From positions 64,001 through 128,000 of the IMG/VR virus record IMGVR_UViG_3300029305_001452: 64,000 nt of DNA. The stretch is one strand, 5' to 3'. Made by a program: the position numbers and the translations under genes. Positions 19,249-43,549 of the stretch are shown piece after piece; the stretch's first letter is position 1; each line of letters starts with the position of its first letter. Below the pieces are notes generated by a model, which saw only the letters and a program-made list of their open reading frames with translations, had not been told where the DNA came from and did no database searches. This DNA comes from a virus (Duplodnaviria; Caudoviricetes).

Positions 19249-19366
19249 AGTAAGTGATACTTAAATACTGCCTCAAAGGATTAGCCTTTCAGGAGACGGT
19301 GCCTGCACCGACTCTGTTTACTGGTGTAGATGCCGAAGTACAAGGTGCAGTAGCCAGCAATAATAT

Positions 19367-19442
19367 GCGGTAGTAGTTCAATTGGTGGAGCCCCAGATTT
19401 CCAATCTGGCTGCTGCGAGTTCGAGTCTCGTCTACCGCTCCA
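19367..19442 (+). tRNA. tRNA-Gly(TCC)
   Basis: cloverleaf, loop TTTCCAA, U73, CCA. Confidence 0.92.
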
Positions 19443-19619
19443 GTAGAGAGAGTCTACTTAAAAGGTCAGCAACAAGATTGTCTGACGCAACGTTGAAACA
19501 AATAGTCCGGGCCAACTTCGGTTATTTGTGGAGTTCATTGAGGGTTTGATGCCATCCACAAGTTGGCTAGACAAAAGTCGAAAGAAAAGCATCAGTCTAC
19601 GAAACGGAGGATATTGCCT

Positions 19620-19667
19620 ATGATTGAATGCGTAAAATCCAGCAAGGAGGAAACTCCTCCAGCATAG
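19620..19667 (+). CDS. candidate 15-aa micropeptide MIECVKSSKEETPPA
   Basis: GGAGG RBS 9 nt upstream; paralog of the same length at 22836. Confidence 0.4.
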   Translation: MIECVKSSKEETPPA

Positions 19668-19709
19668 TAGCGGGTTTCGCCGTTCCCACCAAAAACGGCG
19701 AGTTAATAT

Positions 19710-19798
19710 GGCGGGTTAATTCGGACGGCTCCGAACCTTGTCTTGAAAACAAGTGGTACCAGGGATGGTATGGGGATCGACACCTCAGCCCGTCGCCA
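19710..19798 (+). tRNA. atypical tRNA-Ser(TGA), possibly 8/4 fold
   Basis: loop CTTGAAA, long variable arm, G73, CCA; 5-bp D stem; T loop ATCGACA. Confidence 0.75.
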
Positions 19799-19803
19799 TA
19801 TAT

Positions 19804-19893
19804 GGAGAGTTACCCAAGTGGTCAAGGGGGCAGTTTGCTAAACTGCTAGGGGTTTAAAAGCCCGCGAGAGTTCGACCCTCTCACTCTCCGCCA
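19804..19893 (+). tRNA. tRNA-Ser(GCT)
   Basis: class II cloverleaf, loop TTGCTAA, G73, CCA. Confidence 0.93.
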
Positions 19894-20007
19894 TACCCCG
19901 TACATACCTGGGGTTGCATCGTGTATAAGTCTCGCATAACACTACTTATCTTGTGATGAGTTGACTGAATAAAGGTGTTATTTATCTTAAAGAAAGGAAA
20001 ATATAAA

Positions 20008-20247
20008 ATGAGACTAAAGAGCATTAATGAAGTTAATGATTTTCTAGCAGTAGTTGACTCTTGCAACGGTGATGTTTGGCTAGAATCTCAGTATGGTGAT
20101 AGATTTAATCTAAAGTCAAAACTGTCACAGTATGTTGCTATTGGCGCACTACTAAGTGATAGTCAGGAAGAACTAGAATTGTTCTGCTCTAAGGAAGACG
20201 AAGATAAGTTCTTTTCTTATTTTAGAGAGCATCCTGGTGTGAATTAA
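20008..20247 (+). CDS. small HPr-like protein
   Basis: AGAAAGGA RBS; FLAVVDSCNGDVWL..GDRFNLKSKLS resembles the HPr fold around Ser46. Confidence 0.55.
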   Translation: MRLKSINEVNDFLAVVDSCNGDVWLESQYGDRFNLKSKLSQYVAIGALLSDSQEELELFCSKEDEDKFFSYFREHPGVN

Positions 20248-20261
20248 GTAACACCATATAT

Positions 20262-20336
20262 AGCCCCGTGGCCAAGCGGCAAGGCGAAGGACTTTGACTC
20301 CTTTATTCACTGGTTCGAATCCAGTCGGGGCTGCCA
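20262..20336 (+). tRNA. tRNA-Gln(TTG)
   Basis: cloverleaf, loop CTTTGAC, CCA. Confidence 0.93.
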
Positions 20337-20340
20337 TAAC

Positions 20341-20414
20341 GGAGGATGTGGTGTAATGGTAGCACGCGAGTCTTGGGGTCTTGAAGCGCAGTTCGAATCT
20401 GACATCTTCCACCA
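20341..20414 (+). tRNA. atypical tRNA-Pro(TGG)
   Basis: GGAGGATG/CATCTTCC 8-bp acceptor, shortened T stem, loop CTTGGGG, ACCA. Confidence 0.65.
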
Positions 20415-20437
20415 CAAAAAATAATTTGTCAAACCTC

Positions 20438-20466
20438 TTGACAAATCGCAAAATATATGATATAAT
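20438..20466 (+). promoter_or_regulatory. sigmaA-type promoter
   Basis: TTGACA-17-TGaTATAAT. Confidence 0.8.
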
Positions 20467-20525
20467 CCAGACACTTAAAAGAAAACAACACAAAATTAAT
20501 GGATGAATGAACGAGGTGATGAAGC

Positions 20526-21329
20526 TTGATGGAATATTATACAAGCTCATCTGAACAAATTCGACAAGATACATGTGATGAGGTAGAATATGTAGAAATT
20601 AAAAATCCATTTGGTTTTATTTATATTACAACTAATTTGATAAATGGTAAAAGATATATTGGACAAAGAAAGTTTTCTGATGGGTGGACAACATATCTTG
20701 GAAGTGGAAAGAGATTTAAAACGGCTCTGAAAAAATATGGTAGAAAAAATTTTGTTAGATTAATAGTTGATATAGGCTATTCTCGTGAAGAACTAAATGA
20801 TAAAGAAATTAGTATAATAAAATTTTTAAATGCCGTTGATAGCAGAAATTTTTATAATATATCAGAAGGCGGAGAGATAAAAGGCAAAAGTGGAAAAGAT
20901 GCATACTGGTATAATAAAAAAATTCCACAAGAAAGCATAGAAAAGGCAAATTTAAAAAGATATAAACCTGTTTACCAGTTCGACTTAAATGGTAATTTTA
21001 TTAAGCGTTATGAGTCCGTAACACATGCTGCAAAAGAAAATAATCTTAGCAAACAAGGAATAAGTAAGTCGTGTAATGATGATAGTAAAACATGCGGTGG
21101 TTATTTTTGGTCATACAGTGACAATATTGGCTTAAGAAAATATGATCCTACCAAAAATCATAAACCAGATGAAGTATATCAATATGATTATGATGGTAAG
21201 AAATTAATTAATATTTATATATCTGCAAAAGAGGCAAGCGAAAAAACTGGAATAGCTACATACAATATATATGCTTGTCTTTCTGGTAAGAGAAAACATG
21301 CTGGAAATTTTACTTGGAAAAAGGAGTAA
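20526..21329 (+). CDS. free-standing GIY-YIG homing endonuclease with two NUMOD1-like domains
   Basis: GFIYITTNLINGKRYIGQ..YLGSG; repeats VYQFDLNGNFIKRYES / VYQYDYDGKKLINIYIS. Confidence 0.85.
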   Translation: MMEYYTSSSEQIRQDTCDEVEYVEIKNPFGFIYITTNLINGKRYIGQRKFSDGWTTYLGSGKRFKTALKKYGRKNFVRLIVDIGYSREELNDKEISIIKFLNAVDSRNFYNISEGGEIKGKSGKDAYWYNKKIPQESIEKANLKRYKPVYQFDLNGNFIKRYESVTHAAKENNLSKQGISKSCNDDSKTCGGYFWSYSDNIGLRKYDPTKNHKPDEVYQYDYDGKKLINIYISAKEASEKTGIATYNIYACLSGKRKHAGNFTWKKE

Positions 21330-21336
21330 TTAAATT

Positions 21337-21993
21337 ATGAGTACAAAAGAAACATGCACTATCCACAAGGCACTTTCCGAACTGAAGACTATTGATGACC
21401 GTATCATCAAGGCCATCCGTAGTAACACCTATGTACTAGCTGTTAAGCATTCAGCAGAGAAGATTAACGGTGTGAAGGTTGACACCTGCAAGGAGAATAT
21501 GAAGAGTGGCTATCAGAAGGTTACCGACCTAATAGCTCGTCGTGTTGCAATGAAGAGAGCAGTTGTTCTTTCCAATGCAACCACTAAGGTTAAGGTTGGC
21601 AATAACGAATACACCGTGGCCGAGGCAATTGAGATGAAGAATCACGGTATGGAGTTCAAGAAGACTCTACTACAGTATCTATATACTGCATATGGTTCTG
21701 CTCAGAACGAGTTCAATAAGAACAACGATGAGGCACTTGAAAAGAAGGCAGAGCAGTATGTTCTCGCAGTGATTGCTGCACAGCCCAAGGACTCTAAGAT
21801 GTCTGTTGATAGCGAAGCAATGAAGGCACTTCGTAAGACATACATCGAGAACAACACTTATGATTTGCTTGATCCTCTGAATGTAGCTAAGATCATGGAA
21901 GAACTTGATTCTGAAATCAACGAGTTTGAAGCTGAAATTGATGCAGCACTGTCTGTTTCCAACGCACTAACTGTGATTGAGTTCGAGTATTAA
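21337..21993 (+). CDS. helical protein resembling the DIP1984/septicolysin-like family
   Basis: TIHKALSELK, VLSNATTKV..YTVAEAIEMK and IDAALSVSNALTVIE patterns; family recognised from memory. Confidence 0.55.
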   Translation: MSTKETCTIHKALSELKTIDDRIIKAIRSNTYVLAVKHSAEKINGVKVDTCKENMKSGYQKVTDLIARRVAMKRAVVLSNATTKVKVGNNEYTVAEAIEMKNHGMEFKKTLLQYLYTAYGSAQNEFNKNNDEALEKKAEQYVLAVIAAQPKDSKMSVDSEAMKALRKTYIENNTYDLLDPLNVAKIMEELDSEINEFEAEIDAALSVSNALTVIEFEY

Positions 21994-21997
21994 TTAA

Positions 21998-22420
21998 TCT
22001 GCTTGCTGCTTTTCGAAAACCTTAAACGACTACTTATCTCTTCTTTTTTAATCATTTAGAGTGATATTAATAAGTTAAATAAAATGATTACTAAACAACT
22101 TTATGTACTTGAAATACATAAAACTCTTTGCCTAAGGGTTATAAATAATAAAAGATATGATAAATTAAGATGATCATATAATTATTAATTAATTGTAACT
22201 GTAAAGCTTAAAGTTAAAAATTCAAGACTTAAGGTTCAAGGATCAAAGTTTTATTTTGGTCAAAGGTCGTTTATTAAAGTAGTAAAGAGGGCTAAGAAGT
22301 TATAAATAATTGAATATTATGCGGAGCCCACAAAGTTTTACAAAATCCACGGTTAAAGGTTTGGGTGAGTGGTCAAGGCCCAAAGGTGAGCCTCGTGGCT
22401 GGAAAGTAGCAAGCACCAGA
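21998..22420 (+). ncRNA. putative ~415-nt structured ncRNA with heptamer repeats
   Basis: 16-bp terminal stem 22000-22015/22400-22415 with 3 G-U pairs; further long-range helices; 7 x 7-nt repeats. Confidence 0.7.
22202..22250 (+). repeat. 7-nt tandem repeat, approx. YAARGTT x7
   Basis: TAAAGCT TAAAGTT AAAAATT CAAGACT TAAGGTT CAAGGAT CAAAGTT. Confidence 0.8.
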
Positions 22421-22549
22421 TAAAAATAATAAATGTTGAGTAGTGAGTATAAAGCCATATTGAGTATGCCACAACGTACAAACTCAAGAAAACAGTGAAG
22501 AGCTGGATAACCTTCTGTACAAAGGTTGAATTGAGAGTGGCAGAGTTTA

Positions 22550-22625
22550 GTCCAAAGATGGTGTAAGGGTAGCACACAGAAGGGTAGGCCGGCGAGGTAC
22601 TGTTCGAATCAGTTGAGGGCGACCA
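22550..22625 (+). ncRNA. degenerate tRNA-like element (D and T arms, no clear anticodon stem)
   Basis: GGTGTAAGGGTAGCAC D-like arm, ACTG-TTCGAAT-CAGT T arm, ACCA end. Confidence 0.45.
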
Positions 22626-22835
22626 AAAAGAAAACTCTTAAAAGTACAGAGATATGAAAAAACGATGTAACAAATGAGAACTTGGTCGGTAGAGATTAAT
22701 GATTAAAGATAGACCGTTGGTGAGTCATGCGCAGACAAATCCAACCATCGTTCCCATAGATGAAATTTCTATGGCTCAATGAATTACAAATAACATACGA
22801 AAGTGTGTTAAATAATCCAAAGGAGGACTTTGCCT

Positions 22836-22883
22836 ATGATTGCATTCGCTAAATCCACCTCGGAGGATACTCCAATCGGCTGA
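22836..22883 (+). CDS. candidate 15-aa micropeptide MIAFAKSTSEDTPIG
   Basis: AAGGAGG RBS; paralog of 19620-19667. Confidence 0.4.
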   Translation: MIAFAKSTSEDTPIG

Positions 22884-22922
22884 TTGGGTTCCTGGGGCAA
22901 GAACTGAAACTGCCCCTCATAT

Positions 22923-23000
22923 TGCGGAGTAGACAAGAGGTCTAAGTCGCCAGCCTCATAAGCTGGAAATCGTTGGTTCGAATCCAACCTCACGCAACCA
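22923..23000 (+). tRNA. tRNA-Met(CAT), fMet-like 3' end, bulged acceptor stem
   Basis: loop CTCATAA, ...CGCAACCA. Confidence 0.8.
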
Positions 23001-23003
23001 CAT

Positions 23004-23093
23004 GCCGCAGTGGTGGAATAGGTAGACACCCGGGACTTAAAATCCCGTGAGGCTAAACCCCTCGTACCGGTTCGACCCCGGTCTGCGGCACCA
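23004..23093 (+). tRNA. tRNA-Leu(TAA)
   Basis: class II cloverleaf, loop CTTAAAA, A73, CCA. Confidence 0.93.
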
Positions 23094-23147
23094 CCTGAAC
23101 AAATGGCATCGTGTTATGTGTGGCTGACCAACCTTAAGGTCATATAT

Positions 23148-23223
23148 GCCCCAGTAGCTCAACTGGCAGAGTACTTGATTTGTAATCAAGATGTTGCAGG
23201 TTCAACTCCTGTCTGGGGCTCCA
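23148..23223 (+). tRNA. tRNA-Thr(TGT)
   Basis: cloverleaf, loop TTTGTAA, CCA. Confidence 0.93.
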
Positions 23224-23349
23224 TACTAAAAACAAATCCTGTCGGCAACACTAGAATTATAAATAAGCTAAAGTGCAAGGTTCATGCCCTAGAAAATTAA
23301 ATATAGCTACTAGACAGCATGCCACATCCCGTGCTTCTGTCACTATAAG

Positions 23350-23379
23350 GCACCGGGCAAAACTCGGTGCTATTTTTTT
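23350..23379 (+). terminator. terminator closing the tRNA array
   Basis: GCACCGGG-CAAAA-CTCGGTGC followed by TATTTTTTT. Confidence 0.8.
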
Positions 23380-23391
23380 ACAATTTAGGCC

Positions 23392-23420
23392 TTGACAAAC
23401 TTAAATTAATGCGTTATATT
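23392..23420 (+). promoter_or_regulatory. sigmaA-type promoter
   Basis: TTGACA-17-TATATT. Confidence 0.65.
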
Positions 23421-23461
23421 AACAGTACAAAATTAATATTAAATAAAGGAGACATAATTAA

Positions 23462-25894
23462 ATGACAGAAAAGATTACAATGATAGAACTCTTCTCTGGT
23501 GTTGGAGCACAGGAAAGAGCACTACGGCAACTTAACATTCCATATGAGGTGACTCATACTTGTGATCTAGACAAAGATGCGGTTCTTAGTTATGCTGCAA
23601 TGAGAACCGACTTTGAAAATGAATTTAACTCTTATAATTTCCCATCCGTAGAAGATATGATTTCAGAATTGCAGAGTAAAAATGTTGGCTATGACTTTAT
23701 GAAGGGCAAGCACACCATTACAACTCGTACATCTGTTAACAAGTTGAAGCAATATTATCTTGCGGATAAATTATCCAAAAATCTTGGAGATATCGGAAAG
23801 ATTGAAAGACTTCCTTATGCTGATATGGTTACTTACTCTTTCCCTTGTACTGATTTATCCGTGGCTGGCAAGGGTGAGGGTATGCAGAACAAGTGTGAAT
23901 CTTGTGGTCATTCTTGGCCTATTGACTTTAGTAGTTCCGAAGAGGTACTAGTCTGCCCTAATTGTGGTGAAAATGTGTCTTCTAGCACTCGTTCTGGTTT
24001 GCTAGGGCAGGTTCAGAGACTTCTATCTGTTGCTTATGAGAATAACGAATTGCCTAAGTATCTTCTTCTTGAGAATGTAAAGAATCTTGTTGGCAAGAAA
24101 TTTGTTAATCAGTTCGATGCTTGGGTTAAGTGGCTTGACGGCATTGGTTATAATACATATTATCAAGTACTTAATGCGAAGCACTACGGTATCCCTCAGA
24201 ATCGTGAGCGTATCTTTGCACTTTCTATTCGTAAGGACATTGATAATGGTGAATTTAAGTTCCCAAATAAAATTCCTCTTAATATTCGCTTAAAGAATAT
24301 TCTGGAAAAGAATGTTGATGAGAAGTATTATTTACCAGATGAGCGTATTGATAAAATTCTAAACTCAACATTTATTCAAGAAAAGAAACGTATTCAAATG
24401 AAGGATGTGTGCGATACACTTCTTGCACGAGACTGGAAAGATCCTAAGTGCGTACAGGTGGAAGGCGATACAAGTCCTATTAGGTTAGGTAATATTTATG
24501 ATGAGAAGTTTGGCACCGGTTATGCTGGAAATGTATGGGATAAAAATGGCATATCTCCAACTCTTCAGACGGCACAAGGCGGCAATAGACAGCCGTTGGT
24601 TATTGACGAAGTCAAAGTAGAGCCGTTCATCGTAGCTTCTCGTGGTAGAAATCCAGACAATCCTTCTGATAGAACTACTGGAGCGCCCACAGAGCAAAGA
24701 CTTGAGCCGAATTTTAGTGGTTGCACAAATACTCTTACATCCGTGCAAAAGGATAATTATGTTGCAGAACCTCAGGTGCTTCGTGCTGAAAGAACTGAAT
24801 ACGGTAAGGCCATTCGTAAGCAATATGAATCTGGAGAAGTCTATGAAAAGATTAGCAATATGAGAGAATTGACTCCTCGGACAGATGGTGTTAGTAATAC
24901 TATTACCACCTTATTAAAGGACAACTATGTTTATGAGCCTCAAGTTAAGAATGTAGGTAATATTTATCCGTCTAATGGTCAGAATGGTAATATTTATGAT
25001 ATTGACGGTATTAGCCCAACTATCAATGCGGGTACTGGTGTTAAGGGTTGTGGCATTGGTAGCAATAATGCTCCTAAGGTCATCGTGCCAGAATTATTAA
25101 ATGGCAATTGTGCATATGAGCCACAGATGGTTATTGGAAGTATGCAAGCAAATTCATATATTGGTGATTGTAGCATTAGTCCATCTCTTACAGCTGCCAT
25201 GGGAATGGGTGGCGGTCAGATACCTATGGTTGGTTATGTTACAAAAGATCCTATTATATACGATGATTATAATAGTCGTATTAGTTCTGACCAGGATGCT
25301 ATCAACACACTTACTACCAACTGCGGTGCATCTGCTGAAAGAAATGGCGTTAAGATTATTGAACCGATTGTTTGTGAAGAGCGTAGGGATGAGGGTATCC
25401 GTTTCTTTAAGGACGATTGTGTTGGCACACTAAGAACTATTGATGCATGTGGTGACAAAAGAGTTCTTGAGCCTGAGCCTCAACTAGAGTTTGTTGGTGG
25501 ATTGGGTGAAAAGGATTGGGTTAAAGACGGTAAAATGTTAAGTCGTAACTACCCTCAAGGCTCCAGTGTTTATTCCTCTGATGGAATCGCCTCTGCGTTA
25601 ACTGCACAAGGTGTTGGTGGAGCTGGTGGTTATAGTGGATTATATACGGTAGAGGAAGAGCCTAAAAATATTAAGTGGCGCATTCGTAAGCTTACCCCTA
25701 AGGAGTGTTGGCGTTTAATGGGCTTTACAGATGAAGACCACGATAGAGCGTCAAAATATGTAAGTGCCTCTTCTCTATATAAGCAAGCTGGTAATTCTAT
25801 TTGTACTTGTTGCCTAATTGCAATTTTTAATGCGCTATTCCTACACGATTACAGTACTTCTTATTGTGATAAGCTAGTAGATTATAATTCTTAA
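23462..25894 (+). CDS. dcm: DNA (cytosine-5) methyltransferase with a very large repetitive variable region
   Basis: ELFSGVG, SFPCTDLS, LENVKNL, PQNRERIF, RKLTPKECWRLMGF, KQAGNSI. Confidence 0.9.
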   Translation: MTEKITMIELFSGVGAQERALRQLNIPYEVTHTCDLDKDAVLSYAAMRTDFENEFNSYNFPSVEDMISELQSKNVGYDFMKGKHTITTRTSVNKLKQYYLADKLSKNLGDIGKIERLPYADMVTYSFPCTDLSVAGKGEGMQNKCESCGHSWPIDFSSSEEVLVCPNCGENVSSSTRSGLLGQVQRLLSVAYENNELPKYLLLENVKNLVGKKFVNQFDAWVKWLDGIGYNTYYQVLNAKHYGIPQNRERIFALSIRKDIDNGEFKFPNKIPLNIRLKNILEKNVDEKYYLPDERIDKILNSTFIQEKKRIQMKDVCDTLLARDWKDPKCVQVEGDTSPIRLGNIYDEKFGTGYAGNVWDKNGISPTLQTAQGGNRQPLVIDEVKVEPFIVASRGRNPDNPSDRTTGAPTEQRLEPNFSGCTNTLTSVQKDNYVAEPQVLRAERTEYGKAIRKQYESGEVYEKISNMRELTPRTDGVSNTITTLLKDNYVYEPQVKNVGNIYPSNGQNGNIYDIDGISPTINAGTGVKGCGIGSNNAPKVIVPELLNGNCAYEPQMVIGSMQANSYIGDCSISPSLTAAMGMGGGQIPMVGYVTKDPIIYDDYNSRISSDQDAINTLTTNCGASAERNGVKIIEPIVCEERRDEGIRFFKDDCVGTLRTIDACGDKRVLEPEPQLEFVGGLGEKDWVKDGKMLSRNYPQGSSVYSSDGIASALTAQGVGGAGGYSGLYTVEEEPKNIKWRIRKLTPKECWRLMGFTDEDHDRASKYVSASSLYKQAGNSICTCCLIAIFNALFLHDYSTSYCDKLVDYNS

Positions 25895-25918: not shown

Positions 25919-26779
25919 ATGAAAATTTTAAGTTTATGTGACGGGATATCTTGTTGTCATATTGCACTTGATAGAGCGGGCATTACTGTAAAAGAATACT
26001 ATGCAGCAGAAATCAAAGAAATTGGAATTAGAGTAACAAAAGATAATTATCCTGACACTATCCATATTGGTGATGTGAATAAAATTAGTTATAGAGACGG
26101 TGTGTTATACACAGAGAATGGCAATTATAATGTTGGTCATATTGACCTTGTCGCTTTCGGAAGTCCATGTCAGAGCTTCTCACAGGCTATGAAGACTCAT
26201 ATGAGAGTTGGTCTAGAAGATAAAACGCGGTCTGGTCTGTTCCTAGAGTGCTACAGAATTCTCAAGGAAGTCAATCCTACATATTTCTTAATGGAAAATG
26301 TGGCAAGCATGAAGCAAGAAGATAAAGATTTTATTTCTAAGCTTATGGGTGTTGAGCCTATTCGTATTAATAGTAAGCTTGTTGGACCAGCGCTTAGAGA
26401 TAGATTGTATTGGACAAACATTCCTAATGTAACTCAGCCCAAGGATAAGAAAATTACTCTACAAAGTATTCTTACTAGTGGTTATACAGACAGAGAAAAG
26501 GCGCGAGCGTTGCTTGTTAGTGATAGCCGTCCGTTGACAGATAAGAAAAGAATGATGCACAGATACCGTGATACTGGCTTTACAACCATTATTTGGGAAG
26601 AAAAGGGTAACGACGATTCTATTCGGTATATGAATCAGATAGAGCTTGAGAGATGTCAAAATGTCCCTGAAGGCTATACAAAATGTCTAACAAGAAATGA
26701 GGCGGCAAATGTTCTTGGTGATGGTTGGAGTGTCGATGTAATCGCGCATATTTTTAAAAATTTAACAACACAAAATTAA
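25919..26779 (+). CDS. DNA (cytosine-5) methyltransferase
   Basis: LSLCDGI, GSPCQSFS, MENVASM, RDRLYWTN, LGDGWS. Confidence 0.85.
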   Translation: MKILSLCDGISCCHIALDRAGITVKEYYAAEIKEIGIRVTKDNYPDTIHIGDVNKISYRDGVLYTENGNYNVGHIDLVAFGSPCQSFSQAMKTHMRVGLEDKTRSGLFLECYRILKEVNPTYFLMENVASMKQEDKDFISKLMGVEPIRINSKLVGPALRDRLYWTNIPNVTQPKDKKITLQSILTSGYTDREKARALLVSDSRPLTDKKRMMHRYRDTGFTTIIWEEKGNDDSIRYMNQIELERCQNVPEGYTKCLTRNEAANVLGDGWSVDVIAHIFKNLTTQN

Positions 26780-40246: not shown

Positions 40247-41038
40247 ATGATTAAACTAAATGGTAAAATCATTGAACAAAATAATTTTCCAGATGGAACA
40301 TTACTAATGAAGTGCAATCCTAACAAATATGCAGTAAGCACAATTACATGGCAGTATGAATCTGACGCAGAATTGTTTGCACTTTATAGTTTAAAGAGAC
40401 ATCTCAATTGTACTGTGCCTGGACGGAATAGTTATTTGTATATGCCGTATATTCCAAATGCAAGACAGGACAGGGTAAAAACGAATGAAGATATTTTCAC
40501 TCTAAAATATTTTGCAGAGATTATTAATTCGTTGAATTTTCAAAAAATCTATGTTATTGATCCCCATTCTTCTGTAAGTGAAGCATTAATTAATAACATT
40601 GAAGTAGTGTCTCCAAAGGATTTTATTGAACAGACTTTAAATAATATCAACGTAGATGATATTTTGATGTTCTATCCGGATGAGGGCGCAATGAAACGTT
40701 ATTCTGGGTTAGTGTCTAAGCCTTATGCGTTTGGTATTAAAAAGCGCAACTGGGAGACAGGCAAAATTGAGGGTCTGGATGTTACAGGTTCTGTAGATAA
40801 AATTGTTGGTAAGGATATTTTAATCGTTGACGACATCTGCAGTAGAGGTGGAACATTCTATCATAGCGCAAAGAAGCTAAAGGAACTTGGCGCTAATAAA
40901 ATCTATCTATATGTTACACATTGTGAGAATACAATCCTTGAAGGCGAACTACTTACAAGCGGATTAATTGAAAAGGTATACACAACAAATAGTATTTTTA
41001 CTAAAGAACATGAAAAAATTGAGGTGTTCGAACTATGA
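40247..41038 (+). CDS. prs: ribose-phosphate pyrophosphokinase-like protein (Prs/Adps)
   Basis: FPDG, PYIPNARQDR, DPHS, PDEGA, VDDICSRGGT. Confidence 0.85.
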   Translation: MIKLNGKIIEQNNFPDGTLLMKCNPNKYAVSTITWQYESDAELFALYSLKRHLNCTVPGRNSYLYMPYIPNARQDRVKTNEDIFTLKYFAEIINSLNFQKIYVIDPHSSVSEALINNIEVVSPKDFIEQTLNNINVDDILMFYPDEGAMKRYSGLVSKPYAFGIKKRNWETGKIEGLDVTGSVDKIVGKDILIVDDICSRGGTFYHSAKKLKELGANKIYLYVTHCENTILEGELLTSGLIEKVYTTNSIFTKEHEKIEVFEL

Positions 41039-41613
41039 AACCTTATGATGTAGGGTTGATTTGTGGAAGATTTCAAACATTCCATAAGGGTCACGAAAAG
41101 TTAATTGAAACTGGTTTAATGTTGTGCGACAGACTTTTAATTTTAATTGGAAGCGCACAAGAATGTGGGACTGAGCGTAATCCATTAAACATTAACACCA
41201 GAACAAAAATGCTTAGGATGATTTATGGTGACAATCCAAACATTATGATTTATGGTTTACCTGATTTATCAAACGAAAATGATATTCGTCCAGAATGGGG
41301 TAGATATTTACTTGATAATGCAGACCGATATATTTTCAAAAATCCAGATGTAATGATTTATGGAAATGATGAAAGTAGAAGCGCTTGGTTTGATAAAAAA
41401 GATTTGAAATACACAACAGAACTGATTGTTAATAGGAGCGAACTTCCTATTTCTGCTACTATGGTGCGTCAATATATGGTTGAAGATAATCGTAAAGCTT
41501 GGATGGAATGTGTTAATCCTAAGTTACATAAAATGTATGATGAAATCCGTCGTGAATTAATGACGGTAGATTATTATCAAAAACACTTTTTAAACAATAA
41601 AAATAATGATTGA
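41035..41613 (+). CDS. NMN/NaMN adenylyltransferase (NadM-like)
   Basis: GRFQTFHKGH, GSAQ..RNPL, ISATMVR. Confidence 0.85.
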   Translation: MKPYDVGLICGRFQTFHKGHEKLIETGLMLCDRLLILIGSAQECGTERNPLNINTRTKMLRMIYGDNPNIMIYGLPDLSNENDIRPEWGRYLLDNADRYIFKNPDVMIYGNDESRSAWFDKKDLKYTTELIVNRSELPISATMVRQYMVEDNRKAWMECVNPKLHKMYDEIRRELMTVDYYQKHFLNNKNND

Positions 41614-43095: not shown

Positions 43096-43549
43096 AATTA
43101 TTGACGGTAATTTATTTGACTCTAAAGCAAATATCATCTGCCATCAATGCAATTGCCAAGGTGTTATGGGTTCTGGAGTCGCAGCAGAGGTTAAAAGAAG
43201 ATATCCTTATGTATTCCACAGATATAGAAAAGATTATCTTGATGGTAAACTAAAGCTAGGATATGTTTGTTTTGCATCTGCAAATGTAGACCAGGTAATT
43301 GCAAATATGTGTGGTCAAAATAACTTTGGTTACGATGGCTCTGTTTATACAAACTATGACAAGTTACAAGAATGTCTTAATAATGTTAAAGACTATGCTA
43401 TGTTTTCATATGATGTAAAACCAACCATTGCATTTCCTTGGCTAATGTCATGTTGTCGTGGTGGCGGAGATTGGAATATAGTTTATAAGATGATCGAAGA
43501 TACATTTGAAGATTTTGATGTAGAAATTTGGAGGTTGCAAAATGACTAA
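43088..43549 (+). CDS. macro domain ADP-ribose glycohydrolase
   Basis: MVKIIDGNLF, HQCNCQGVMGSGVA, GGGDW; ATG 43088 overlaps the upstream stop. Confidence 0.8.
   Translation: MVKIIDGNLFDSKANIICHQCNCQGVMGSGVAAEVKRRYPYVFHRYRKDYLDGKLKLGYVCFASANVDQVIANMCGQNNFGYDGSVYTNYDKLQECLNNVKDYAMFSYDVKPTIAFPWLMSCCRGGGDWNIVYKMIEDTFEDFDVEIWRLQND

Follow-up and report, generated by a model that had tools for sequence, protein, structure and literature searches.

We analysed a stretch of 64,000 nucleotides (hereafter the window), which makes up the second 64 kb of a sequence of 139,972 bases from a large gut phage (IMG/VR record IMGVR_UViG_3300029305_001452; completeness estimate 87%). The window contains genes of replication and nucleotide metabolism (DNA polymerase, helicase, RecJ, ligase, ribonucleotide reductase, NAMPT) and 14 tRNA genes at 17849-23223, an array broken up by homing endonuclease genes and one drum RNA. 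Within this array sits a + strand gene (21337-21993; the partner gene), an open reading frame (ORF) for a 218-aa mostly helical protein with a match to the profile phrog_1491. Nine nucleotides after its stop codon begins the subject of this report, a structured + strand RNA of ~412 nt (22002-22413) bounded by a closing stem, P1, and delimited by conservation in relatives and by covariation. No + strand ORF of at least 40 codons was found between the stop codon of the partner gene and the next tRNA (22923), and neither ARAGORN nor the Rfam models called a tRNA or transfer-messenger RNA (tmRNA) in 21994-22420. A first-pass annotation, made from the letters alone, had proposed here a closed, pseudoknotted + strand RNA of ~415 nt with phased heptamers behind a DIP1984-like gene. 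All the complementarities that it listed are present at the positions given, and the RNA as such is borne out by covariation over 41 relatives; judged from such sequence comparison, 22002-22413 is a real, discrete, evolutionarily conserved structured non-coding RNA.

Relatives of the locus were gathered by two independent routes, a protein search and an RNA-only pattern search. The first route, which follows the check proposed in the first-pass annotation (homologues of the gene together with the DNA downstream), yielded 43 viral contigs. In 41 of them the gene is followed, directly after the stop codon, by ~410–430 nt that can be aligned to the window; the similarity ends at window position ~22413-22425, i.e. 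at the 3′ strand of P1. In the other two loci (L038 and L039) a small ORF lies between the gene and the RNA, and in L038 the RNA is intact despite this insertion. Across the relatives the RNA is 350–520 nt long. The + strand had been argued from G-U pairs, and these proved to be a family trait: the pair G22015:U22400 is G-U in 41/41 RNAs and G22008:U22407 in 34/41. Because the minus strand would turn them into C-A mismatches, the RNA is placed on the + strand. Folded as a single sequence, it reaches −97.6 kcal/mol (z −4.0 versus shuffles), ~17 kcal/mol better than the minus strand (−80.4 kcal/mol).

Pairing was quantified on the 41 non-redundant RNAs (alignment A2). For P1, the pseudoknot PK1 and the three helices of the 3′ domain (P3a, P3b and P3c) taken together, 97.0% of the alignment cells were paired, compared with 74.6±0.8% in shuffles (0 of 500 reached the observed value) and 32–47% when the 3′ partners were slid by 1–3 columns; compensatory changes, on both sides, were seen in 25 of the 33 pairs. 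P1 joins 22002-22015 to 22400-22413 (14 pairs, 98% paired, 10 of them compensatory). The first-pass annotation had drawn it as 16 bp; the conserved span is 22002/3-22015 with 22400-22412/13 (13–14 bp), and the outer 2–3 bp (22000-02 with 22413-15) are not conserved. The 5′ strand leads into a conserved junction, CGAAAACC (22014-22021), which lies within the consensus of the Rfam family RAGATH-27 and in which GAAA is invariant in the 41 RNAs; the 3′ strand is preceded by an invariant GGCUG (22397-22401).

Two long helices in the order A-B...A′-B′ had also been drawn in the first-pass annotation. Helix B (22028-38 with 22364-74) contains a true pseudoknot in 7 of its 11 pairs: PK1, which joins GACUACU (22028-22034) to 22368-22374, covaries at every position and is 95% paired (at one example pair the counts across the family are GC 20, UA 16, CG 4 and AU 1). 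Since its 3′ arm is the loop of the hairpin P3c (22363-66/22378-81), PK1 is a genuine long-range pseudoknot. Helix A (22017-27 with 22352-62) was rejected. Only its invariant AAAC/GUUU can pair family-wide, the other seven positions pair in 10–32 of the 41 RNAs, and G22358-G22359 instead pair with C22391-C22392 in the covarying P3b. At position 22358, five of six G-to-A changes are matched on both candidate partners, in sequences that share a clade-typical 5′ motif; going by the alignment, a switch between helix A and P3b is conceivable.

The 3′ domain (22347-22398) consists of P3a (22347-51/22394-98), P3b (22357-59/22391-93) and P3c, which are 100%, 98% and 91.5% paired, respectively, with compensatory changes in 8 of 12 pairs. 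P3a is the core of the pairing of CCACGG with TCGTGG seen at first pass: CCACG and CGTGG are paired in every RNA, with three covarying pairs. The 5′ domain, when realigned, revealed a second, local H-type pseudoknot that the first-pass annotation had missed. It is formed by P2a (22037-42 with 22059-64; all 6 pairs compensatory, 88% of cells paired) and the interleaved hairpin P2b (22050-56 with 22083-89; 7/7 pairs compensatory), which has a conserved A-rich loop and is the hairpin of Rfam's RAGATH-27. With the alignment based on sequence only, 61.5% of the P2b cells pair; for P2a and P2b together, 74% of cells were paired versus 54%, and 13/13 pairs were compensatory. Of the two local hairpins proposed at first pass, the one at 22049-90 is thus P2b, and the one at 22100-22 falls in a variable region and recurs in close relatives only. 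A further hairpin, GGGC...GCCC (22289-22329), is clade-specific, has a variable insert and is found in about half of the relatives. It is followed by a nearly invariant single strand, AAAGUUUUACAAAAUCC (22332-22348); the query of the pattern search by which 105 RNAs were recovered included this strand. RNAalifold proposed one more helix, UGUAAAGCUU (22200-09) with AAGUUUUACA (22333-42); it shows no compensatory changes, has 12–13 mismatches at its two most variable positions, and was dropped.

An A-rich repeat array occupies 22199-22287. The seven phased heptamers noted at first pass are present at 22199-22250 (CTGTAAA/GCTTAAA/GTTAAAA/ATTCAAG/ACTTAAG/GTTCAAG/GATCAAA) and are followed by TCAAAGG, TTAAAG and GTAAAG; an additional AAAG unit stands at 22332, beyond the end of the array. 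A-rich units of 7 nt occur family-wide: the spacing between A(2-4)G motifs peaks at 7 (112 cases), 8 (67) and 14 (43) nucleotides, and the array is conserved in all clades, with a hairpin inserted in its middle in some lineages. No supported pairing was found for the array in the 41 RNAs, and RNAalifold leaves most of it unpaired. The idea that the heptads mimic anticodon loops (YU-NAA-R-N) was dropped, as the units of phage T5 do not keep this pattern. Some ten short motifs at even spacing, unpaired and presented on a rigid scaffold, are also what one might expect of a decoy, i.e. an array that would sequester a defence nuclease or a host RNA-binding factor, perhaps through the protein as adaptor, as CsrB does with CsrA or a type III antitoxin RNA with its toxin. 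The module does occur in large lytic phages that also carry tRNA sets, and such sets are thought to offset host defences directed at tRNAs. However, no host protein known to be specific for AAAG was identified, the units are neither GGA nor tandem repeats of 30–40 nt upstream of an endoribonuclease gene (as in ToxIN), fold searches with the protein gave no nuclease-like match, and nothing in this analysis indicated toxicity. We regard a decoy as quite improbable.

Upstream of the array lies the variable region (22091-22198), made up of lineage-specific hairpins. In 9 of the 41 relatives (L048, L049, L052, L053, L057, L074, L087, L107 and L133) ARAGORN found a whole tRNA at this site. The anticodons of these nested tRNAs vary among close relatives (GUA or AUA for Tyr, GCC for Gly, UGA for Ser, UAA for Leu, besides some odd or unassignable loops), and the nested tRNAs in the L048 and L133 RNAs also pass the Rfam tRNA threshold (52–68 bits).

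The first-pass annotation did not recognise the RNA as a named family. This holds for most of the molecule, but the Rfam scan that it had suggested showed that the 5′ end is a divergent RAGATH-27 (RF03100). The full-length model (1-86) matches 22002-22090 with 45.5 bits (E 1.7e-4 when 1.6 kb are searched, 1.5e-5 for 141 nt), short of the gathering score of 76.1, so that a scan of the window at the gathering threshold did not report it, whereas in a permissive scan it was the one relevant match. The likeness lies in the first ~89 nt, which carry CGAAAAC...AAAC and then the hairpin with the A-rich loop. In four relatives (L054, L156, L075 and L080) RAGATH-27 exceeds the gathering score, with 87–97 bits, at the 5′ end of a long RNA that is preceded by the same gene and can be aligned to the window RNA in P1, in PK1, in the repeats and in the 3′ domain. 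Because these threshold-passing relatives are long RNAs homologous to the window RNA, RAGATH-27, as far as can be read from the alignments, is the 5′ fifth of an RNA of 350–520 nt. The first 47 positions of the Rfam model are unpaired, whereas in the window RNA they supply the 5′ strands of P1, PK1 and P2a, whose partners lie up to 400 nt downstream. In the literature we found no paper on RAGATH-27 and no mention of its tie to the phrog_1491 gene, and the main text of Weinberg 2017 does not mention RAGATH (PMC5737381).

We asked the converse question, whether the RNA occurs with the gene, through the RNA-only search, for which a 31-nt pattern from the 3′ domain was used. It gave 113 matches, 105 of them with a complete 3′ domain, and 73 of these had at least 1.1 kb of sequence upstream. 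A homologue of the partner gene lies upstream in 71 of the 73 loci (38–78% protein identity), ending 264–428 nt before the pattern; the RNA is thus genetically tied to the gene for the helical protein, as proposed at first pass. The two exceptions are one truncated remnant, present identically in L047 and L110, which keeps the repeats and the 3′ domain only, the partner gene and the 5′ half of the RNA having been replaced by a 467-aa ORF. This ORF (L047:767-2331) is rich in zinc-ribbon-like CxxC motifs and ends exactly at the start of the truncated RNA.

The pair extends well beyond the gut-phage relatives. T5, Bacillus phage Bcp1, Lactococcus phage AM2 and Pseudomonas phage KIL3b each have an unannotated gap of 442–499 nt behind a homologous gene, and the closing stem is present in all four. 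In T5, where the homologous gene is T5.085, the stem is 21 bp long, is flanked by GAAAG and GGCUG, and comes with an AAAG array and a P3a-like helix; the putative T5 RNA would measure ~355 nt, at about 43,145-43,501 of NC_005859 on the minus strand. In KIL3b the stem and the AAAG array are visible. A covariance model of the 3′ domain (R1) scores 90.4 bits at the 3′ domain in the window, where there is no other convincing copy (next match 17.6 bits, E 0.44), and hits the expected place in L038 (49.5 bits), Bcp1 (36), AM2 (35) and T5 (18), the matches in Bcp1 and AM2 being clear; it found no match in KIL3b at E ≤ 1. A nucleotide search of phage isolates with the whole locus returned one weak coding match. 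Downstream of the T5 copy, at the head of the tRNA region, the T5 record (NC_005859) annotates a 719-nt 'RNAX, stable RNA with unknown functions' (40848-41566), which begins ~1.6 kb from the module; we found nothing on T5 stable RNAs in the literature.

The position behind the gene raises the possibility of a cis-acting element in the 3′ untranslated region, which would guard the mRNA from 3′ exonucleases, or set translation or termination, and have no function in trans. It would fit with the start of the RNA 5–40 nt after the stop codon in most lineages, and with the intrinsic terminator that follows the closing stem in Bcp1, AM2 and KIL3b, so that the transcript would have its 3′ end there. 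Nevertheless, 350–520 nt with two pseudoknots, invariant single strands and a repeat array exceed what protection of an mRNA needs; the arrangement tolerates a small ORF between gene and RNA (L038) and a whole tRNA within the RNA; and in tRNA arrays the processing of the tRNAs would be expected to sever the RNA from the mRNA. We therefore consider a purely cis-acting role very unlikely.

The protein encoded by the partner gene belongs to a large family (2277 cluster representatives at 50% identity; 741 phage isolate records). Residues 5-217 match phrog_1491 with E 3.1e-53. The database label of this profile, 'tail fiber protein', is probably wrong: it is doubtful because the gene sits among early, tRNA, replication and nucleotide-metabolism genes, both here and in T5, and fold searches of the protein model gave no match to fibre proteins. 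As a single sequence the protein has no match in Pfam, NCBIfam or PDB; a profile of 60 relatives likewise gave nothing significant in the three databases, and no Pfam family recurs among the 60. The AlphaFold2 model (predicted local distance difference test, pLDDT, 95.5) shows long helical hairpins and short strands. Its best match among solved folds is PDB 3kdq, with a VIA-align Z of 11.0 (top of 48,161 chains; next entry Z 7.5), although a Z below about 13 does not by itself settle the matter when proteins are helical; 151 of 152 residues are aligned, with a root-mean-square deviation of 8.3 Å and 12–14% identity. Foldseek also ranks 3kdq first (probability 0.99, E 0.02). This entry is titled 'functionally unknown conserved protein from Corynebacterium diphtheriae'.

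The first-pass description of the gene as DIP1984-like stands in part. In its favour are the fold match to 3kdq, which we take to be DIP1984, and NCBIfam NF038048 (DIP1984_fam), which 2 of the 60 relatives match weakly (E 0.0016); DUF6847 is found in 15% of the members of a related Atlas cluster. However, the window protein itself is below the curated cut-offs of both NF038048 and DUF6847 (PF20935), and 3kdq is ~65 residues shorter. A distant likeness to DIP1984 thus has some support; it is uninformative about mechanism. A BFVD fold search returned solely uncharacterised phage and giant-virus proteins, including weak matches to Mimiviridae proteins. The literature held nothing on DUF6847 or T5.085, and DIP1984 appeared in one unrelated mention alone. 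Within the protein, an S-N-A-x-T motif occurs twice (79-83 and 208-212), and both of its asparagines are invariant.

We modelled the protein as a homodimer, and the model passed its controls (interaction score ipSAE 0.64, versus 0.00 for the best of three controls), with a run-to-run contact agreement of at least 88% and a partner pLDDT of at least 86. Of 30 proteins whose solved structure is a pair of one chain, 20 attain this level, as does 1 of 23 whose solved structure is a single chain. The pass may be due in part to the likeness with 3kdq, which was solved with several chains.

A hint of expression comes from metatranscriptomes. Contigs from four runs of three studies cover the RNA at 85–99% identity; several of them are RNA-sized (340–440 nt), and in two studies there are contigs that start at 22014. 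We take this as a weak hint that the RNA is expressed. In one contig from an RNA library (run X16), 22413 is followed, after 18 other letters, by 22002. The simplest reading is that a related genome has a tandem copy in its DNA; the contig might conceivably reflect a circular or permuted form of the RNA.

The above results can be combined into one explanation, to which we give a probability of about one half: a gene-linked structured RNA and a putative protein–RNA particle in which the repeat array serves as a binding strip. In it, the RNA of 22002-22413, the complete version of a class of which RAGATH-27 is the 5′ end, would act in trans. P1, PK1 and the H-type knot of the 5′ domain clamp a largely unpaired segment of ~90 nt with about ten AAAG-type units at a spacing of 7–8 nt. 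The RNA would be transcribed together with the gene and the neighbouring tRNAs and then trimmed out during tRNA processing, as may be surmised from the next tRNA lying 4–5 nt after the stem in some relatives. RNA and protein would then form a ribonucleoprotein particle, in which the knotted core would be a rigid scaffold and the array would offer many landing sites to the protein, itself modelled as a symmetric homodimer. It is also possible that the array receives a host factor captured by the RNA–protein pair. Such a particle is plausible. The first-pass annotation had suggested oligomerisation of the protein along the repeats (TRAP-like counting or a filament), or else a toxin–antitoxin or anti-defence module; this is favoured by the near-obligate linkage of gene and RNA and by the homodimer model that passed its controls.

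Several observations speak against this explanation and have to be set beside it. The protein is mildly acidic (isoelectric point 5.8; family median 5.7), in which it differs from typical RNA-coating proteins and which disfavours simple coating of the RNA, and its conserved basic residues are few (K17, R22, R68 and H10). The relatives fall into ~8–10 clades, so that the compensatory cells counted above are not independent events. The metatranscriptome data are assembled contigs, which give no ends, strand or level, and the libraries may have contained DNA. Finally, the large phage RNAs GOLLD and ROOL assemble into RNA-only cages in the absence of any protein (bioRxiv 10.1101/2024.12.08.627333), and the linkage of gene and RNA could by the same token reflect shared transcription only.

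The last point leads to an RNA-only machine of the GOLLD/ROOL kind, which would self-assemble or handle tRNAs or ribosomes, and whose neighbouring protein would be merely co-transcribed or would share a pathway with the RNA but not bind it. GOLLD and ROOL are likewise large, multiply pseudoknotted phage RNAs near tRNA islands (PMC5737381; bioRxiv 10.1101/2024.12.08.627333), and the linker of GOLLD sometimes holds tRNAs (bioRxiv 10.1101/2024.12.08.627333), as does the variable region in the nine relatives described above. The acidity of the protein fits as well. Against it, the gene adjoins the RNA in 71 of 73 loci, down to 38% protein identity, the closing stem stands behind the homologous gene even in far more distant phages of Gram-positive and Gram-negative hosts, and the sole RNA without the gene is a broken one. 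With permissive filters, 21900-23500 gave no Rfam match to GOLLD or ROOL at E ≤ 10. Neither of the two has, to our knowledge, a protein partner, let alone an obligate one. We consider an RNA-only machine unlikely, if to be taken seriously.

What a protein–RNA particle would do may be guessed from its surroundings. Same-strand tRNAs flank the module in 16/16 related gut-phage loci, some starting 4–5 nt after P1, and T5, the sole isolate checked for its tRNA context, has one tRNA ~1.6 kb downstream of the module. This constant place in the tRNA islands of large lytic phages, together with the tRNA nested in some lineages, would point to a role of the particle in tRNA or translation biology, or in countering host defences aimed at these. 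In its boldest form, the proposal is that of an obligate, widespread viral ribonucleoprotein, in which putative dimers sit side by side on the AAAG units of a two-pseudoknot scaffold and act on tRNAs, the ribosome or host defence, sometimes with a covalently linked tRNA, from gut phages to T5 and the phages of Bacillus and Lactococcus. We put this forward tentatively, as an idea that is more likely to fail than to hold.

The neighbourhood suggests how the module might be transcribed. Pattern matching finds a promoter-like site of the consensus sigma-70 type at 20438-20466 (+ strand; 12/12 match and a TG extension) and a terminator-like hairpin at 23349-23371 (+ strand), 3′ of three downstream tRNAs. 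On the strength of its sequence, the promoter-like site could drive a homing endonuclease gene (GIY-YIG/NUMOD; 20526-21329, directly 5′ of the partner gene), the partner gene, the RNA and the tRNAs, and the two sites, which enclose both genes together with the RNA and three tRNAs, suggest one processed transcript.

Other elements of the array and its flanks were noted in passing. An HNH endonuclease gene (18445-18993) lies within the tRNA array, as does the drum RNA (RF02958) at 19488-19597, which scores 69 bits versus a gathering score of 43; a second drum RNA in L133 (1207-1318) is located immediately 3′ of the homologous long RNA. Between the RNA and the tRNA-Met, a segment of ~390 nt (22420-22810) is absent at this place in the relatives, whose RNA runs almost straight into a tRNA. 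Parts of it are similar to 12687-13040 of L046, elsewhere in a related 170-kb phage; it contains a T-arm-like GUUCGAAUC, then CGACCA, is covered by metatranscriptome contigs, and has no Rfam family match in a permissive scan. It may be a separate mobile non-coding RNA. Beyond the array are two adjoining genes for C5 cytosine DNA methyltransferases (23462-25894 and 25919-26779), the first of them unusually long (810 aa), with its methylase domain matched in three separate stretches. The related contig L038 has a phage-borne tmRNA gene (957-1366; tag peptide ANNNTEIVMVHPALIAALEGAAA) 1.6 kb upstream of the partner gene.

It is rare to meet a large RNA with an intricate fold and no known function, and each one solved so far has brought new biochemistry. 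Here a molecule was hidden behind a database motif of 86 nt; the real RNA has 350–520 nt, two pseudoknots, a repeat array and a dedicated neighbouring gene. Hundreds of phages have the gene-plus-RNA pair, including T5, where the RNA falls in a gap left unannotated and which makes it directly testable in a classic laboratory system. If the particle is real, phages would have a ribonucleoprotein of a new kind, linked to their tRNA islands.

The RNA can be compared with several known systems. In type III toxin–antitoxin systems (ToxIN), repeats of ~30–40 nt lie upstream of an endoribonuclease gene, with a terminator between; here the units are 7–8 nt, the RNA is downstream of the gene, there is no terminator between the two, and the protein has no nuclease-like fold match. 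The analogy with CsrB/RsmZ and CsrA, or with the 11-mer of TRAP and the trp leader, is that many purine motifs of 3–4 nt stand at regular short spacing in accessible RNA, and it shows how the array might work. However, the motif here is AAAG, not GGA or (G/U)AG, it recurs every 7–8 nt, the units are outside hairpin loops, and in place of a beta-sheet dimer or a ring the candidate partner would be a helical dimer. Bacterial Y RNAs have paired ends and are encoded beside the gene for Ro60 (Rsr), and one of them, YrlA, has a tRNA-like module. The window RNA resembles them in being closed by pairing of its 5′ and 3′ ends, in adjoining a protein gene and in having a tRNA-shaped domain in some members; it differs in that no Ro60/TROVE protein is present, in being 3–4 times larger and pseudoknotted, and in that its inserts are full tRNAs by ARAGORN and Rfam, while mimics of the YrlA type lack the anticodon arm.

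A likeness with GOLLD and ROOL lies in that these are phage-borne, hundreds of nucleotides long, with several pseudoknots, located in tRNA arrays and probably co-transcribed with tRNAs, and sometimes with a tRNA within a variable linker (here in 9/41 relatives). In contrast to them, the RNA described here is smaller, has a heptad array, and lies almost always behind one particular protein gene. If the protein–RNA particle exists, the RNA would be a third large-RNA class of this niche beside GOLLD and ROOL, and the first with a known protein partner.

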